Made by a program: the position numbers and the translations under genes. Below are positions 29,838 to 36,665 of a stretch of 64,000 bases of DNA, one piece after another. Position 1 is the stretch's first letter. Each line of letters opens with the position of its first letter. Source of the stretch: a bacterium (GTDB lineage: Bacteria; UBA8248; JACPRG01; G963555815); assembly GCA_965218795.1 (NCBI GenBank), contig OZ244653.1, positions 4,224,001-4,288,000 of the forward strand. The letters are read 5' to 3'. The notes beneath the pieces are model-generated. The model was not told the DNA's origin, did not search any database, and saw nothing but the letters and a program-made list of their open reading frames with translations.

Positions 29838-31025
29838 TTACTCTCCCTGATACGGGCAGACGATCAGCTCGAACGGCAGCGATTCGCTCAGCACCTCGGT
29901 TCCCGTTTCCGTCACGAGCACGTTCTGCTCCATGTTGAAGCCCGACAGGCCCTTCCAGTAGAAGGGGGTCTCGACCGCGAAAACCATGCCGGGCTGGAAG
30001 GTCCGCTTTTCTCCGGGTTCGATGAAGGGGTATTCTTCCACCTCGATGCCCACGCTGTGTCCCATCATCCCCCGCTTGTAGTGAGGGTAGCCGTTTTCCT
30101 TCACGTACTCCACGCCGATGGGGAAGATGTCCTCCATGGGAACCCCGGGCTTGATGGCCGCGATCATCCGGAGCGTGGACTCCTTCATCAGGGCGTTGAG
30201 CTCGTGGATTTCATCGCTCGCTTCGTGGATGCACATGGTCCGGGCCAAGTCCGAGGTGTAGTGCCGGTAGACGCCTCCGATATCCCAGCGGACGGGGTCG
30301 CCTTTTTTGCCCACGTAGTCGTCCATGCCCGCCTGATGATAGGGGTCCGCCCCGTTGATTCCGAGGCCCATCGTCGTGTGCCACCAAAGGCAGTCGCGCT
30401 TGAGGAAGCCCTCCTTGAGCGCGCGGAGGACCCGGGTCTCCGGAACGCCGTCGTCAATCGCGCGGCACATGTCCTTGATCGCTTCGCAGGTCCTGTGATT
30501 GGCCTCGCGCGTCAGATCGATCTCCCTCGGCGTCTTCACCATCTTCATGTCGATGACGGCCTCCCGGGCGTCTTCGAATGTTGCGCCCGGCAGCTCGTTC
30601 CGGAGCGTCTCCGCGTGCATCGCGGGGAGGTCGTCCATCTCGATGCCGATGACGGCGTTGCTCAAGTGGTTCTCCCCGATGGCTTTGATGAGTCCCTTCA
30701 TGGCTCCGGATTCGTACATGTCCGGAATCGTCTCGCCCTCGGGCAACTCGAGGTGCATGCCAGTGGGCGTGAAGCCGATCCGGGGATGCTCCTTGAGCTT
30801 TTCCAGGTACATCGAAGTCCCGTAGCTGACGATGAGCCGGGGCTCTCCCTCCCTGGGCACCAGGACGAAAACCGGGCCGATGCGCCTCAGCATGAAGAGG
30901 ATGGTGTTGCGCGAGGTCGGAAGACAGTCCAGACCGCTGGTGTAAAAGACGTTCTCGGACGATGAGGCGATGAGCGCGTCGAGATTTCTCTCTTTCAGAA
31001 TGGCCTGCACGCGCGAAAGGTCCAT
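29838..31025 (-). CDS. Xaa-Pro peptidase (M24) family protein
   Basis: creatinase-like N-domain; D..D (DIGGVYRHYTSD), GHSVG, VETP, MEQ metal ligands. Confidence 0.88.
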   Translation of the reverse strand: MDLSRVQAILKERNLDALIASSSENVFYTSGLDCLPTSRNTILFMLRRIGPVFVLVPREGEPRLIVSYGTSMYLEKLKEHPRIGFTPTGMHLELPEGETIPDMYESGAMKGLIKAIGENHLSNAVIGIEMDDLPAMHAETLRNELPGATFEDAREAVIDMKMVKTPREIDLTREANHRTCEAIKDMCRAIDDGVPETRVLRALKEGFLKRDCLWWHTTMGLGINGADPYHQAGMDDYVGKKGDPVRWDIGGVYRHYTSDLARTMCIHEASDEIHELNALMKESTLRMIAAIKPGVPMEDIFPIGVEYVKENGYPHYKRGMMGHSVGIEVEEYPFIEPGEKRTFQPGMVFAVETPFYWKGLSGFNMEQNVLVTETGTEVLSESLPFELIVCPYQGE

Positions 31026-31112
31026 TAACACAGTGAATCTCCTCGATCGGGTTTCAATGGGATCTCAAGGAAACTGCAATAGCTTTGTCCCGTAGGGACA
31101 AAATACCTTCGG

Positions 31113-32555
31113 TTACGATGTAACCACTACCCCATCCTCCGCGGATGGCGGGCCCGCGTCGTTTGGCTCATGCTGATCGTCAGATTGGTCTGACTCCGAC
31201 TGCGAGCCGACGTCACCATTGCGCCTTTCGCTTGCTTCGACGATATCGGTTTCCTGAATGGGGTCGTGTTTATCAATTGATGGAGGTGGAGGAGCCCAAG
31301 GCCGTAAATTCTGACCGATACGATCGTAGAAATCCGGTATCAGATGTTCCAAATCTTCTATGAAGGTTCGTCGCCCAGAGAACCGGCCAGCGAGATCTCT
31401 GATCATGACAACTTCGAAGCTTGTCGGTGCTGCACCCGGACGATCGCTCTCAAGACACTTGGAGTCTGCCTCGATCTCCGACAATGACGCCTGAGTTGGT
31501 CTCCTTCTCCCGAGCCAGAATGCCCGAACGATCACATCGTCGCCATCAACGCCTTGCAACTGTCGAACGAGCCAGTTTATCCTCGCGCTGGCTCGCTTCC
31601 TGTCACTCGGAGCATTGAGCTTCATAGAGCAGGAGACCGTTCGGCGTTGCAAATTTGCTGTTACTTCGAGATCGCTGGCAGCATTTGGTACACTGAAGAA
31701 ATAGCTCAACTCCTGCGAAGCAATCAACGAATCGCATGCATCTCGGAGCCGAAGTGCGGGATCTACCTGATGCTTACGCGAAAGGCGGATACCGACCCGT
31801 TCGCCGATACGGCGGCTCAATATCAGACATACATCTCTTTCTTCCTGATGACAGCTCGCAACGGTATTTTCGATCTCGGGCGAAGATCGCTTGAACGGTT
31901 GCTCATTTCGAATTCCAAGGACGAGCGACCGCCATTCTGAGTTCATTTGATCAAAACGTTTGACTCCAGAACTCGGATGTTCGAAATAGCGTGCCATCTC
32001 TTCAAGAATAAAAGCTTGTTCTCGACTTATCCCTTCTTTATCTCTCAAAATCAATGATGCTTGGGTGAGCACGCTAATCCAAGAAATATGAAAAAATTTG
32101 ACACGATTACTGAGCCTCTTCGGAACTGAATAGGGAACATGTGATGGTAAAGGCACCAGTTGATTTGACAACGTGATCACTGCATCGATCCCGTATTCGC
32201 GTGCTATCTCTGCATATCTATGCACTTGCTCTTCGCTTATCTTAGTTTGGTCGATCTTTGCTTCGAGAAGCGCTGTCCACCGGGCCTTACGCGTCAATAG
32301 GCTCAAAACACCGTCGGGCCGGTCTTTGCTGCTTCCGTCGGAAGCTACAAATTCGACCTCTGTAGCTGCGTGTAGGTTGGATGTCTTCCCCATCCTTACC
32401 CCACAACGCTCCAATAGTTGTTCGGCAAACGGATGCACCACGGACAGTGTCGCAAGAAGAACGGATACTATTCGCTCTTCCTTGCTGGATTCGGCAACGG
32501 TAGGGATGAGCCTTGCGCGTTGGGCATCTCTCAAAATGGCGTCGAGAGCACTCAT
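31113..32555 (-). CDS. hypothetical protein with a PD-(D/E)xK nuclease-like motif
   Basis: RPDG...LLEAK and QVHRY motifs; lower GC than the flanks. Confidence 0.7.
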   Translation of the reverse strand: MSALDAILRDAQRARLIPTVAESSKEERIVSVLLATLSVVHPFAEQLLERCGVRMGKTSNLHAATEVEFVASDGSSKDRPDGVLSLLTRKARWTALLEAKIDQTKISEEQVHRYAEIAREYGIDAVITLSNQLVPLPSHVPYSVPKRLSNRVKFFHISWISVLTQASLILRDKEGISREQAFILEEMARYFEHPSSGVKRFDQMNSEWRSLVLGIRNEQPFKRSSPEIENTVASCHQEERDVCLILSRRIGERVGIRLSRKHQVDPALRLRDACDSLIASQELSYFFSVPNAASDLEVTANLQRRTVSCSMKLNAPSDRKRASARINWLVRQLQGVDGDDVIVRAFWLGRRRPTQASLSEIEADSKCLESDRPGAAPTSFEVVMIRDLAGRFSGRRTFIEDLEHLIPDFYDRIGQNLRPWAPPPPSIDKHDPIQETDIVEASERRNGDVGSQSESDQSDDQHEPNDAGPPSAEDGVVVTS

Positions 32556-32633: not shown

Positions 32634-32770
32634 TCAAGCTCTGGGGTCGAGCTTCCGTTGAACTGCTCCCGCCACGAGCTCGGCGGCACCGATCAGGGTG
32701 GCGTCGTCGAGATGCGCGTAGCGGTTGGTGGTGGTCGTGCGTCGGTGGCCGAGCAGACGTCCCGTAAGGT
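32634..32770 (-). pseudogene. C-terminal fragment of a tyrosine recombinase/integrase
   Basis: GRLLGH...TTNRYAH box II motif; upstream part replaced by repeats. Confidence 0.75.
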
Positions 32771-32792
32771 CGTTACCCCGGTACGACCGCAT

Positions 32793-33176
32793 GGATTCCT
32801 GCTGTCGCCTGTCCCCGAAGGTTTCTATCGGGGGCAGGAATGACCAACGACTCAGACAGTGCGGAATTCCCACACTTTCGTCGAACTCCCCCTGTCCAAC
32901 CCTTTTGATTGTCATTCCCGCGCAGGCGGGAATCCAGGATGCAGGGGCGGCGCCCCTACACCCGCCACAAGGACTCCTGCGGAACCTCCCAACCCGTCAT
33001 TTCCGTTGGCCTGCCCCCGAACGTTTCAGTCGGGAAATGGATAATGGATTCCTGCTGCAACCTGTCCCCGAAGGTTTCTATCGGGGGCAGGAATGACCAA
33101 TCGAAGTCGCGTGGAGCCCCGCTCGTCATTCCCGCGAGGCTTGTCCTCGAGTGCTTGAGTCGGGGAGCGGGAAACC
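32793..33176. repeat. cluster of GTCATTCC..GGAATCC REP-like palindromes, simple and loop-expanded
   Basis: 52-bp near-identical copies at 32793-32844 and 33046-33097; simple copy at 32911-32935; variant at 33125-33176. Confidence 0.8.
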
Positions 33177-33474
33177 GGATTGGCCGGATCATAGCGGTCG
33201 GTGGCGAGTGCTTCCGTCGCGCCCCGCCGATTGACACGGGCGGGAGGCGCTCGCCATGAATCGGTTGAAGTCCGAATTTCAAGGTCTCGATGGATGCCGT
33301 TATGGCTCATTGAGTCATGGGCCGCGGGTTCCCCAGGTCATGAGAGGCGAAGGTCCGAAACGGAAAATGTGCTATATTGGAGGCGCTCATTCTCCCATGG
33401 AAGGAGCGCCTTTCGAACGATGTGACCCGTTCTTCTCATGATCGGGAGTGGCGAAACGAAGGGAAAGAACTCTC

Positions 33475-34110
33475 ATGCCGAACATCACAATGCTGGACAT
33501 CGAGGACCTGGAGAGCACAAAGCTCGGGCCTTTTATCAAGAAGAGTCTCAAGCACCGTGCTCCCGACCCGGCTTTTCACGCGATGATGGGCCACAACATC
33601 GAGCTGACCCAGGCGATGTTCATCGCCTGGGGGACCGTCTTCAATACCGGGAAGATCGACCACAAGCTGAAAGAGATCATTCGCGTGCAGTTGTCCCGAA
33701 TGGTCGATTGTAATTACTGAGGCAACGTCCGGTCCGCTTCGGCGAAGCGGCAGGGGCTGACGGAAGAGATCATCGATGAGGGAATTGAAAACTACGAGAA
33801 GAGCGATCGATTCACCGAGGCCGAAAAACTCGCCCTGCGCTACAGCGAGTGGATGGGCGACGACCCGGGAAAGATCGATGCCGCCTTCTACGAAGCGCTG
33901 AGGAAGCATTACACCGAAGAGGAAATCGTCGAGCTGGGGGTCTTCATCGGCTTCAACGTCGGCTACCACACCTTCTTCGGGACCCTCAAATTTTATCCCA
34001 TGTTCGACAAGGAGGGGAACCTGGTCAGTCAGGAGGAGTCCGCACGGGTGTACGGATGTCGGCCCGTTTCGCATCTGAAACAGCCGGAAGAAGCGGCCCC
34101 CGTCGCCTGA
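33475..34110 (+). CDS. AhpD/carboxymuconolactone decarboxylase family selenoprotein (CxxU), 211 aa
   Basis: KEIIRVQLSRMVDCNY-TGA(33718-33720)-GNVRSASAKRQGLTEE continues without a stop into ORF 33853..34110 (EKLALRY, HYTEEEIVELG). Confidence 0.88.
33734..33750 (+). promoter_or_regulatory. candidate bacterial SECIS hairpin
   Basis: perfect CCGCTTC-GGC-GAAGCGG stem-loop, loop at +21 from the UGA; possible lower stem CGTC/GACG. Confidence 0.7.
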
Positions 34111-34142
34111 TTTGTCCTGACTTCGCTCGAGGAGTGAGCCTG

Positions 34143-34745
34143 TTGCCTCATATCGATCCCGTCCGCCCGGAGGATGTCCGGGACCCCGGTTTCTCCGAGA
34201 TTCGCAAAACCTGCGAAGAGCTTCAGGTGCCGGATGACCTCTTTCTGGGCATCCTCGGTCACGTGCCCGGATATGCAAAAGCGTTGACGGATGCCATGAT
34301 CGAATCGCATGCGAAGGGGAACGTCGACCACAAGCTGAAGGAGATCATCCGTGTCCGGCTCGCAAGAACGGCCCAGGATACGTATTTCGCCAATCTCCGA
34401 TCGCGCGAGGCGCAGGCCGAAGGTCTGACGGAGGAGAGGGTCGAGGCGGGGTCGGGGGATTTCGAGAACGATACCCGATTCACCGAGGCCGAAAAACTCG
34501 CGCTGCGGTATGCGGACTGGATGTATCGTGGTGACCCGAAGAAGCTGGACGCCGCCTTCTATGACGAGATGAAAAAGCATTTCACCGAAGCGCAGATCAT
34601 GGAACTGGGCTCCTTCATCGCCCTTCATTACGGGATGCAGGTGTTTATGCGCACGCTTCGGGCCTTCCCCGCGCGCGACCGCGAGGGGAACCCGGTCGAT
34701 CAGAACCAATCAGAAAAAATCTACGGCTCCGAAGCCGGGCGGTAA
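34143..34745 (+). CDS. AhpD/CMD family paralog lacking the CxxC/U motif
   Basis: DHKLKEIIRVRLARTAQDTYF aligns with DHKLKEIIRVQLSRMVDCNYU; TTG start 8 nt after GAGGAG. Confidence 0.82.
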   Translation: MPHIDPVRPEDVRDPGFSEIRKTCEELQVPDDLFLGILGHVPGYAKALTDAMIESHAKGNVDHKLKEIIRVRLARTAQDTYFANLRSREAQAEGLTEERVEAGSGDFENDTRFTEAEKLALRYADWMYRGDPKKLDAAFYDEMKKHFTEAQIMELGSFIALHYGMQVFMRTLRAFPARDREGNPVDQNQSEKIYGSEAGR

Positions 34746-34921
34746 CTGAAGGGCAAGGTCCGGACCGGTTGTCCATCGCCCCCTTGAGGGATGTGTCGAG
34801 GTTTGCGCGGACAATGCGGCCGGCCCGAGAGTTTCCTTGCGCCCGGAGCTGCGTAGAGGCATGAGAGGGGCGACATCGATTGACGCTGGTGACCCAAAGC
34901 AGTGGAGAAGGAGGTCCTCGC

Positions 34922-35524
34922 ATGGCGGAAGAGACAAAAATTCATGTGCCGGGCGGAGAGGGAAGGGCGTTCGAAGCCAAGGCCGGGCAGGTCGTTGCCG
35001 TGGTGAATCTGGAGGGAAAACAGGTCGCGGACTTCTGGGCGTTCAACGCAAAGAATTTCGATGAGCCCCTCGGTGCCAACCATACGGTGGTCCACATTGG
35101 AAGACTGTTCCCCCAAGTGGGGGATGAGCTGCTGACCGATATGCGGAACCCGATCCTGGAAGTGACGCGGGACGATTGCGGACGCCACGACATGATGATC
35201 GCCGCGTGCGACATTCGACGCTATGAAATCTACTACAACGTCTCGGGCCACCGGAACTGCATAGACAACGCCCTGGAGGCCCTCGCCTCCAGGGCGGTCG
35301 AGCGCCGCCAGCTGGCCCAGCCGATCAACCTGTTTCAACACATGGGTTACGGCGACGACGGGAGCCTGGAGTTCCGCGAATCTCTCGCCCAGCCGGGCGA
35401 CCGGATCGTATTCCGGGCCTTGATGGACGTGGTCGGTTGCGTGTCCGCGTGTCCGATGGATCTGAACCCGATCTCCGGAGGCAGGATCACGGATCTGGAA
35501 ATCCTGATCTCGGATTCCGCGTAA
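34922..35524 (+). CDS. DUF1989 / urea carboxylase-associated family protein
   Basis: GKQVADFWAFN, HDMMIAAC, HRNC, INLF, SACPMD; AGGAGG SD. Confidence 0.88.
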   Translation: MAEETKIHVPGGEGRAFEAKAGQVVAVVNLEGKQVADFWAFNAKNFDEPLGANHTVVHIGRLFPQVGDELLTDMRNPILEVTRDDCGRHDMMIAACDIRRYEIYYNVSGHRNCIDNALEALASRAVERRQLAQPINLFQHMGYGDDGSLEFRESLAQPGDRIVFRALMDVVGCVSACPMDLNPISGGRITDLEILISDSA

Positions 35525-35547
35525 GGCCGGGAAATGCGCGCCGCCGT

Positions 35548-35884
35548 GTGAGTGCATCTCGCGCCCGCCGTTGACGAGAACCGTCCGACCCGTGATGTAT
35601 GCGGCCTGATCCGAAGCCGGGAACGATACGAGCGACGCGGCGTCTTCGGGCCCGCCGATTCGCTCCAACGTTGTCCGCTTTGCCGCCTTCGCTTGGTACT
35701 CCCCGCACATCGGGCGTCCGTCACCGATACCCGTTGCCGCGGCCCCGGGAGCGGCGCGGACCACCCGAATCTCGGGGGCCGGATGCCGGGCGCTCCACTT
35801 CGTCATCATGACCCGGCCGATCTGCGCGACGTGACAGGGCAGGCTTTGGGGAACCGTGACGAACGCCAACTCGGACCCGATGGA
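35548..35884 (-). pseudogene. 5'-truncated, degenerate paralog of the adjacent SDR
   Basis: IGSELAF...PGAAATGIGDGR...YITGRTVLVNGGR parallels the SDR C-terminal half; no Rossmann N-terminus. Confidence 0.7.
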
Positions 35885-35918
35885 ACGGTCCGCGGGCGGC
35901 GTCGGGTGAAGCCCCGAG

Positions 35919-36665
35919 TTACCGGCAAATGCGTCCTCCGTTCACCAGGTAGGTTTGACCGGTGATGAAGCCGGCCTCGCCGGAGACCAGGAAGGCAACG
36001 AGGCTTGCGACGTCCTCGGGCTGTCCGAACCGGTCCATCGGGGTCTCGGCTGCAACGGCCTCCTGAACTTCGGGTCTGAGAAACCTGCCGTCGCCGATGC
36101 CCGTCGCGGTCGCTCCGGGACAGACGCAGTTCACGCGAATCTCCGGGCCCAGATCGTGCGCCAGCCATTGGGTCATGGATATTCGCCCGCTTGCCGAGAT
36201 GTGGTAGGGGAGGGTTTGGTATTTCGGTTTGAAGGCCAGCTCCGATCCGGTGATGACGATCACGCCTCCGCCCGCTTGCCGCATTCGCGGAACCGCCTCC
36301 CGCGTGCAGTAGAAATGGCTCTTCAGGTTGACGGCCAGAATCTGGTCCCACAACTCGTCGGTGATGTCCTCCAGCTTTGGAGCGGGGATTGCGATCCCTG
36401 CATTGTTCACCAAGATGGAGAGGGGGCCAAGGGCAGCGTCCACCTCCCGGAAGAGGGATTCCACCTCATCTTTTCGGGAGACATCCCCCCCGACCGCAAC
36501 CGCGCGGACGCCAAGCTCTTCAGCCTTTCGTGCGCCCGCTTCCGCCCGTTGCCGACCCGTCTTGTAGTGAAAGGCCACGTCGTGCCCGTTACGGGCGAGT
36601 TTCAACCCGATGGCCTGGCCGATACCGCCGCTCGCCCCCGTCACCAGGGCGACCTTTCGCTCCAT
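35919..36665 (-). CDS. SDR family NAD(P)-dependent oxidoreductase
   Basis: TGASGGIG, VNNAG, FITGQ; YHISA in place of the canonical YxxxK. Confidence 0.9.
   Translation of the reverse strand: MERKVALVTGASGGIGQAIGLKLARNGHDVAFHYKTGRQRAEAGARKAEELGVRAVAVGGDVSRKDEVESLFREVDAALGPLSILVNNAGIAIPAPKLEDITDELWDQILAVNLKSHFYCTREAVPRMRQAGGGVIVITGSELAFKPKYQTLPYHISASGRISMTQWLAHDLGPEIRVNCVCPGATATGIGDGRFLRPEVQEAVAAETPMDRFGQPEDVASLVAFLVSGEAGFITGQTYLVNGGRICR

Follow-up and report, generated by a model that had tools for sequence, protein, structure and literature searches.

Within a window of 64,000 nucleotides (nt) of bacterial DNA (contig OZ244653.1 of assembly GCA_965218795.1, positions 4,224,001 to 4,288,000), a gene interrupted by an in-frame TGA is followed on the same strand by a paralogue devoid of redox residues and by a gene for a DUF1989 protein. 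The question that this locus raises is whether the interrupted gene encodes a selenocysteine (Sec)-containing oxidoreductase of the AhpD/CMD type and, if so, which of its two neighbours belongs to the same functional unit. The original prediction, made from the sequence of the window, had joined the three genes into a single system. The data presented below point, with a probability that we place at about 70%, to a conserved two-gene module composed of a Sec oxidoreductase and its non-redox paralogue, the DUF1989 gene lying outside it. The features of the locus are collected in Table 1.

Analysis of the list of open reading frames (ORFs) revealed that the ORFs 33448..33720 (90 aa) and 33853..34110 (85 aa) share a common frame. 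Translation of 33475-34110 with TGA read as Sec (U) resulted in an unbroken protein of 211 residues, hereafter the Sec protein, whose sole internal stop is the TGA at 33718-33720; the proposal that the two ORF calls represent a single frame was thus confirmed. Since all orthologues in the alignment open with M-P-N-I-T-M-L, the start of the gene was placed at ATG 33475. The motif around residue 82 is D-C-N-Y-U-G-N-V-R-S, and U82 lies under the second Cys of the CxxC motif of both PA0269/AhpD and Bmp8, the position that had been assigned to it originally.

The conservation of this codon was studied in two sets of relatives, namely the best 80 of 278 identified by scanning one genome per species, and the best 80 of 403 identified in metagenome contigs from the Joint Genome Institute (JGI); flanks of 4 kb and 1.5 kb, respectively, were used for the reading of neighbouring genes. 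TGA was present at the Sec column in 80/80 genome loci and in 80/80 metagenome loci, so that tabulation of Cys and Sec at the second redox column gave TGA in all 160 cases, and the codon for the first Cys was TGC or TGT in 80/80 genome loci. In the phylum of the window, the Sec gene was found in 43 of 51 genomes, each best match carrying exactly one TGA. The true stop of the gene was variable in the genome loci (TGA in 33, TAG in 35 and TAA in 12), and TGA was its ordinary stop in 63 of 76 metagenome loci; therefore, these organisms do not in general read TGA as sense. Homology was also observed to cross the TGA, with a Pfam CMD match over residues 51-106 and PDB alignments over residues 61-160.

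The source genome, a single contig of 5.17 Mb, was shown to contain the complete Sec machinery. It carries selB (386.7 bits, cut-off 242.25) with selA adjoining it (565.8 bits, cut-off 267.9), selD (319.1 bits) and a gene for tRNA-Sec (72.1 bits), the latter two above their curated cut-offs; the tRNA was called tRNA-SeC, anticodon tca, by ARAGORN. The selD gene (C1:5147448-5148413, minus strand, locus L010) has one in-frame TGA of its own, and selenophosphate synthetase is probably a selenoprotein in this organism.

The perfect 7-bp hairpin that had been noticed downstream of the TGA, with its loop starting 21 nt after this codon, was recovered as a candidate selenocysteine insertion sequence (SECIS). 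Its folding energy was unremarkable (z = -0.27, with 70 of 200 shuffles folding as well). All seven stem pairs were formed in 81 of 81 aligned sequences, with pair 18-32 being C-G in 37 of them and U-A in 44, with 0 mismatches, and a second compensatory change, from U-A to C-G, appearing in one of the 81. The covarying bases correspond to the synonymous third base of a Ser codon (TCC/TCT) and to the second base of an Arg CGG or Gln CAG codon. None of 500 shuffles matched the observed percentage paired or covariation score, and the entropy of third codon positions was 0-0.16 bit inside the stem-loop vs 0.8-1.9 bit outside. In the equivalent columns of the paralogue, the stem was fully paired in 0 of 42 sequences and all third positions were variable; the mean minimum free energy over 42 loci was -16.0 for the Sec gene vs -14.9 for the paralogue. 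These data indicate that the support for the predicted hairpin is evolutionary, not thermodynamic. An early survey defines the bacterial SECIS as a stem-loop located just past the UGA, whose apical loop is small and includes a G (PMC1088965), a description matched by the 7-bp stem, GGC loop and 13-nt spacer found here. Because of the conserved TGA, the Sec machinery, the covarying hairpin and the homology across the codon, we consider it virtually certain that the UGA at residue 82 would be decoded as Sec, and selenium incorporation is predicted.

The paralogue was located directly downstream of the Sec gene in 79 of 80 genome loci (in the remaining one the contig ends) and in 63/80 metagenome loci, so the adjacency first seen in the window is conserved elsewhere. 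Among the 17 metagenome loci with no visible paralogue, 12 have less than 300 nt past the Sec gene and another (L127) has 315 nt, whereas in L141, L153 and L158 a Meth_synt_2 gene follows the Sec gene and the contig then ends. The gap between the two genes showed a median of 9 nt in genome loci and 19.5 nt in metagenome loci, with overlaps in 7 and 11 cases, respectively, and the second match adjoined the first in 39 of the 43 genomes of the phylum. Record labels of loci with the pair include Nitrospinota, Tectomicrobia, Alpha- and Betaproteobacteria, SAR324 and Acidobacteriota.

In a joint tree, midpoint-rooted on a long branch, Sec proteins and paralogues formed one clade each and were reciprocally monophyletic, with support values of 1.0 for the paralogue clade and 0.37 for the Sec side. 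The distance matrices of both proteins were correlated (r = 0.82, a value reached by 0 of 1000 label permutations), the paralogue evolving ca. 1.5 times faster than the Sec gene. The reciprocal clades and the correlated distances indicate that the duplication is old and that both genes have passed together, by descent or by transfer.

In a SAR324 genome (L043), a single frame of 426 codons was found to comprise the Sec domain, a linker of ca. 55 residues and the paralogue domain. When the 120 best database clusters were sorted by architecture, 19 corresponded to single ORFs under translation table 11 containing the post-TGA part, a linker and the paralogue, whereas 88 were fragments starting just past the TGA, five were complete or almost complete proteins showing Trp in the Sec column, two were hybrid and six were left unclassified. 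Of the evidence at hand, these fusions argue most strongly for the Sec protein and the paralogue acting as one unit. As a separate observation, one of the hybrids (P0022, 181 aa) consists of the N-terminal part of the Sec protein followed by the motif and C-terminal part of the paralogue, and the other (P0066, 201 aa) has the reverse composition; such hybrids might have arisen by recombination of the tandem genes or through chimeric assembly.

The next gene, 32 nt downstream of the Sec gene, proved to be a full-length paralogue with D-T-Y-F at the redox motif, as had been described (42% identity to the Sec protein, E 4e-55), although its score against Pfam CMD (20.9 bits) is under the cut-off of 23. 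A GAGGAG sequence at 34129-34134 precedes its TTG start at 34143, and translation could instead begin at GTG 34134. The residue that replaces C79 in the paralogue is Asp in 75/78 genome loci and in 60/60 metagenome loci, with Ala or Ser in the remainder; U82 is replaced by Phe in 76/78 and 60/60, respectively, and by Ser in the remainder. Neither Cys nor TGA was found at these columns in the 78 genome and 60 metagenome loci. The paralogue is under purifying selection (mean column identity of 60%, vs 73% for the Sec protein) and shows a set of near-invariant polar residues (H56, D79, H162, Y163, Q166 and R170) with no counterpart in the Sec protein. The original prediction had called this twin catalytically erased: the loss of both redox residues stands, but the term is too strong for a protein with near-invariant Asp and Phe and conserved polar residues of its own.

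To what family the Sec protein belongs was addressed by profile and structure comparisons. The protein matched Pfam CMD (PF02627) with 37.1 bits (cut-off 23) and remained below the cut-offs of the curated NCBIfam (seleno)protein models NF053654 (61.5 vs 310), TIGR01926 (30.6 vs 81.8) and NF041047 (19.1 vs 110). An AlphaFold2 model of the Sec protein built with 42 orthologues was all-helical, with 12 helices (predicted local distance difference test, pLDDT, 83.6; predicted template modelling score, pTM, 0.84). A Foldseek search with this model gave template modelling (TM) scores of 0.64-0.76 to 2prr, 2pfx, 3c1l, 6k40 and 6ohi; the first four are AhpD-core 'peroxidase-related' proteins, and for Bmp8 (6ohj/6ohi) the values were 0.67/0.74. 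Bmp8, a thiol-dependent reductive debrominase of tetrabromopyrrole, was also ranked first in the PDB profile search (E 8.9e-13) and is the best relative by both profile and fold. Its G-C-M-Y-C aligns with D-C-N-Y-U, so that its C-x-x-C corresponds to C79-x-x-U82, and a C82A mutant chain marks the first Cys of Bmp8. Bmp8 has been proposed to dehalogenate by oxidising its own cysteines to a disulfide (PMC5577590). On the other hand, Bmp8 and the Sec protein are only 21-22% identical, Bmp8 carries Cys and not Sec, and it belongs to a bromopyrrole biosynthetic cluster, of which no counterpart was seen here. We know of no partner paralogue of Bmp8.

The AhpD of Mycobacterium tuberculosis and the Pseudomonas aeruginosa AhpD/PA0269 (7xw1, 2ijc, 2o4d) share with the Sec protein the CMD fold and the CxxC motif. 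The second Cys, the nucleophile in M. tuberculosis AhpD, is the counterpart of U82. Both also have a Glu 12 residues ahead of the first Cys, which in the Sec protein is the invariant E67. The Sec protein is ca. 60 residues longer than AhpD, and the His found four residues past the second Cys in PA0269 (C-A-Y-C-V-N-M-H) is replaced by the invariant R86 in C-N-Y-U-G-N-V-R. Given this replacement of the His of the C-x-x-C-x-x-x-H motif, the Sec protein is predicted to be an AhpD-fold thiol/selenol oxidoreductase and not a canonical AhpD. Since the nearest solved relative is the thiol debrominase Bmp8, peroxide defence is not the only candidate function.

These results can be combined in the following model. 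Comparative evidence strongly supports decoding of the UGA by SelB and tRNA-Sec, as directed by the hairpin 13 nt downstream, and an obligate genetic partnership between the Sec gene and the paralogue. By extension of AhpD and Bmp8 chemistry, the selenolate of U82 would attack an oxidised or halogenated substrate, C79 would resolve the adduct to form an intramolecular selenenylsulfide, and an external thiol reductant would recycle the redox centre C79-x-x-U82. The ancient paralogue, having lost its redox residues, is co-inherited with the Sec gene, often translationally coupled to it and fused to it in some lineages. On balance, it is somewhat more likely than not that the paralogue belongs to the same enzyme as a non-redox subunit or domain, either without catalysis or with a different one, which would contribute to structure, substrate binding or regulation. 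An active Sec unit together with a degenerate paralogue would resemble the AhpD-like halves of sestrin: Sestrin2 (5dj4, 5cuf) contains two such halves per chain and offers a parallel to the fused forms of SAR324 and betaproteobacteria. One of these halves keeps a catalytic Cys, and the other is degenerate and binds a ligand. Sestrin2 is a eukaryotic protein lacking Sec and a weak Foldseek match (E 0.34-0.47, ranks 38-39), so the likeness is one of analogy and not of family membership.

Several observations weigh against the two-gene module or against parts of it. The correlation of r = 0.82 reflects co-inheritance, not contact, and is expected for any linked genes. Two enzymes that catalyse successive reactions could likewise be co-inherited and fused, and fusion in some lineages is no proof of a hetero-oligomer in species with unfused genes. 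In locus L095, the order is Sec gene, Meth_synt_2 and paralogue, this locus being identical to L153 over Meth_synt_2, and in L185 the 1.5 kb downstream of the Sec gene lacks a paralogue and contains a PTPS-family gene. The comparison covered the best 80 of 278 genome relatives and the best 80 of 403 metagenome relatives, and versions with Cys or without pairing may occur among the others. The presence of Arg instead of the canonical His suggests that the chemistry may differ from that of AhpD. As regards Sec itself, an Rfam scan of 33400-35000 with E values up to 10 gave no match, and five database proteins (P0004-P0008) print Trp at the Sec column (C-x-Y-W-G). These proteins come from short metagenome contigs, and their Trp is probably a TGA read under another translation table; no exact match to the contigs behind them was found among the 80 metagenome loci kept, either with table 4 or with table 11, and as indirect evidence 80/80 of their nearest metagenome relatives carry TGA.

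An alternative explanation is that the paralogue functions independently, for example as a non-redox CMD-type enzyme or binding protein that assembles into homo-oligomers; it would act before or after the selenoenzyme in one pathway and be linked to it for co-expression only. The polar residues peculiar to the paralogue could form an active or binding site of its own, crystals of AhpD/CMD proteins contain homo-oligomers (6-12 chains per PDB entry), and the two genes can be separated, as in L095. This explanation is, in our opinion, unlikely in view of the single-polypeptide fusion in at least two lineages, the very tight or overlapping spacing of the genes, and their near-universal co-occurrence over at least five phylum-level labels. 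Within the two-gene module, we also contemplate, as a doubtful elaboration by analogy with Bmp8, an obligate two-subunit or, in some lineages, two-domain AhpD-fold enzyme in place of a peroxidase acting alone; the Cys-less Asp/Phe/His pocket of the paralogue would bind or position the substrate, a small organic molecule, for a Bmp8-like, cofactor-free reductive removal of a halogen or other leaving group by a selenolate/thiol pair. If true, the enzyme would be a bacterial analogue of the deiodinase reaction.

Table 1. Coordinates of the features described at the locus (positions in the window)
Feature	Position	Strand	Description
Sec-containing AhpD/CMD-fold gene	33475..34110	+	211 aa; C79-N-Y-U82; true stop TGA 34108-34110
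UGA selenocysteine codon, residue 82 (predicted)	33718..33720	+	TGA kept in 160/160 loci; aligned with second Cys of CxxC
SECIS-type hairpin (candidate)	33734..33750	+	7-bp stem 33734-33740 / 33744-33750; loop GGC 33741-33743; 13 nt past UGA
Cys/Sec-less paralogue	34143..34745	+	200 aa; D-T-Y-F at redox motif; TTG start, 32 nt past Sec-gene stop
DUF1989 gene	34922..35524	+	200 aa (P0003); PF09347 167.5 bits vs 27, profile positions 2-168 of 168

The third gene is a co-oriented DUF1989 gene, in agreement with what had been noted from the sequence (Table 1). Like 3oru/3siy and the DUF1989 domain of 9q59, its product shows a full-length PF09347 match; it aligned with PDB 3oru (E 8.7e-36) and with residues 190-382 of the trimethylamine N-oxide (TMAO) demethylase 9q59. 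Against the TMAO demethylase model it scored 127.5 vs a cut-off of 1100, covering only positions 165-362 of 763, and its scores were also below the cut-offs of the UAAP1 and UAAP2 models (107.6 vs 284.7, and 69.3 vs 205.95, respectively). In contrast to TMAO demethylase, it is a stand-alone protein of 200 aa with no urea carboxylase or aminomethyltransferase domain beside its gene in the window.

The membership of this gene in the system was not sustained by comparison with other loci. A DUF1989 gene followed the pair in 2 of 80 genome loci, those of the nearest relatives (L028, 86% identical, and L029, 82%), and in 0 of 80 metagenome loci. With adjacency in only 2 of 160 other loci, the DUF1989 gene appears as a lineage-specific neighbour and not as part of the conserved module. 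Other neighbours were surveyed by scanning 17 of the 33 clusters present in at least six loci, several of the others being antisense shadows. FAA hydrolase and class-III aminotransferase genes were found upstream of the pair in 27-28 loci, and HMGL-like, cupin and MFS genes near it in 11-14 loci; CoA-transferase, SDR, creatininase, M24 creatinase-like, pyroglutamyl peptidase and Meth_synt_2 genes appeared in fewer. Neighbourhoods thus differ by lineage, with small-molecule catabolism as the theme and no universal partner. AhpD works with an AhpC-type peroxiredoxin, usually encoded nearby. No peroxiredoxin was identified among the 17 neighbour clusters scanned, no whole-genome search for ahpC having been made, and neither halogenase nor bmp-like genes turned up among the scanned neighbours. 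This gene context lends no support to a role in peroxide defence, and one in nitrogen-compound catabolism is not established from such varied catabolic neighbourhoods.

The original prediction had further suggested that the Sec subunit, the pseudoenzyme partner and DUF1989 cooperate in nitrogen-compound catabolism. It could draw on the position of DUF1989 after the pair in the window and in L028 and L029, on the presence of DUF1989 domains in TMAO demethylase and urea-amidolyase-associated proteins, on the creatininase, M24 creatinase-like, class-III aminotransferase or pyroglutamyl peptidase genes of some other loci, and on the contigs from RNA libraries that match both the paralogue and the DUF1989 gene. 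We regard this cooperation as very improbable, because DUF1989 is missing from 78 of 80 genome loci and from all 80 metagenome loci within the flanks read, the three positive cases are close kin and amount to about one event, a gap of 176 nt separates the DUF1989 gene from the paralogue, and the genes around the pair vary widely from one locus to another (FAA hydrolase, CoA-transferase, HMGL-like, cupin, MFS, SDR).

The RNA-library matches consist of contigs from two metatranscriptome libraries, X18 and X19, labelled as sponge metagenome, which are at least 99% identical to the window over 34487-34695 in the paralogue and 35393-35648 at the 3' end of the DUF1989 gene; in run X17, whose RNA origin is a guess, one contig spans from the 3' end of the Sec gene into the start of the paralogue (34041-34271). 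The matches of at least 99% in X18 and X19 show that the organism or a near strain occurs in these sponge-labelled libraries. It has to be noted that such contigs show no transcript, strand or level and that the uncovered parts prove nothing, so the RNA evidence is weak. A scan of 32900-36000 yielded 0 promoter-like sites and three terminator-like sites vs 2.8 expected, being uninformative on operon structure.

Finally, the explanation that the TGA is not a Sec codon, being either a genuine stop that delimits two genes or a pseudogene, or else Trp or Gly under another genetic code, retains next to no credibility, since the splitting of the gene by gene callers (88 of the 120 listed database matches are post-TGA fragments), the Trp of five database proteins, and the ordinary folding energy and lack of Rfam match of the hairpin are contradicted by a TGA and reading frame kept in 160/160 loci, by the covariation of the hairpin, by homology across the stop with a complete Sec machinery, and by the use of TGA as the normal stop of the same gene in 33/80 and 63/76 loci.

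Some additional observations were made on related genes and on the surroundings of the locus. The genome of the window contains two more distant AhpD-like genes, with 30% and 28% identity to the Sec protein and one in-frame TGA each. One of them (locus L026, G000:C1:1016746-1020039, match at C1:1018246-1018539) shows the motif T-C-N-N-U when TGA is read as U and is located directly after a Meth_synt_2 (MetE-like) gene; the other (L027) lies at C1:3004290-3004652 on the minus strand. A Meth_synt_2 family gene for 390 aa (PF01717, 105.5 bits) lies between the Sec gene and the paralogue in L095 (4714-5883), directly after the Sec gene in L153 (1343-2512), L141 (779-1945) and L158 (857-2023), and after the pair in L061 (5667-6827). 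It shares 59% identity with the Meth_synt_2 gene that adjoins the second AhpD-like selenoprotein gene in the genome of the window, so MetE-like proteins and AhpD-like selenoproteins may be repeatedly associated. The non-coding stretch that precedes the Sec gene contains a direct repeat of 57 nt (32791-32847 / 33044-33100), with copies 95% identical and 253 nt apart. The ORF 32634-32915 (minus strand) was considered as the end of a tyrosine recombinase and discarded, as it gave no Pfam match. A further ORF, 31113-32555 (minus strand, 480 aa), with no Pfam or NCBIfam match, is situated between an M24 peptidase/creatinase-like gene (29838-31031, minus strand) and the repeat region.

Selenoproteins of the AhpD-like or CMD-domain type with a CxxU motif have been described previously. 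In the available text of the reports, they appear in the Sargasso Sea survey of 2005 (Zhang, Fomenko & Gladyshev, PMC1088965) and in the Global Ocean Sampling (GOS) survey of 2008 (PMC2398784), the latter with 299 and 70 sequences for two AhpD-like families, and they are also listed in a 2026 review (PMC13188914). Like the gene of the window, they combine the AhpD/CMD fold, a CxxU motif with Sec in second position and a SECIS with G in a small apical loop, and they occur in marine and soil bacteria. AhpD-like 1, AhpD-like 2 and CMD are the candidate published subfamilies for this gene, set side by side by description only. In contrast to the genes studied here, the published ones are listed, in the text available, without a partner paralogue. 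No published description of the pairing was found, and the terms 'paralog', 'heterodimer' and 'pseudoenzyme' gave 0 hits in the available text of the 2026 review; the supplements of the CxxU selenoprotein papers might list neighbours. The claim that the arrangement is undescribed therefore holds for the pairing and not for the CxxU AhpD/CMD-like selenoproteins, which were published in 2005 and 2008: the Sec gene is of a known kind, and its conserved partner is apparently unpublished. New here are the fusions, the single-duplication tree, the invariance of Asp and Phe, the negative control that the paralogue provides for the hairpin, the relationship to Bmp8 and the placement of DUF1989 outside the module.

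According to the accessible parts of the surveys, CxxU AhpD/CMD-like proteins are among the commonest predicted selenoproteins of ocean and soil metagenomes, and no reported function for them was found there. Current annotation obscures the Sec gene, as public gene calls cut it at the TGA (88 of 120 clusters) or print Trp (five clusters), and every curated NCBIfam model misses it. If the Sec protein is obligately paired or fused with a redox-dead paralogue, biochemical work should express both genes together, and the natural fusions provide a ready single-chain construct. The kinship with Bmp8 widens the range of substrates worth testing past peroxides.

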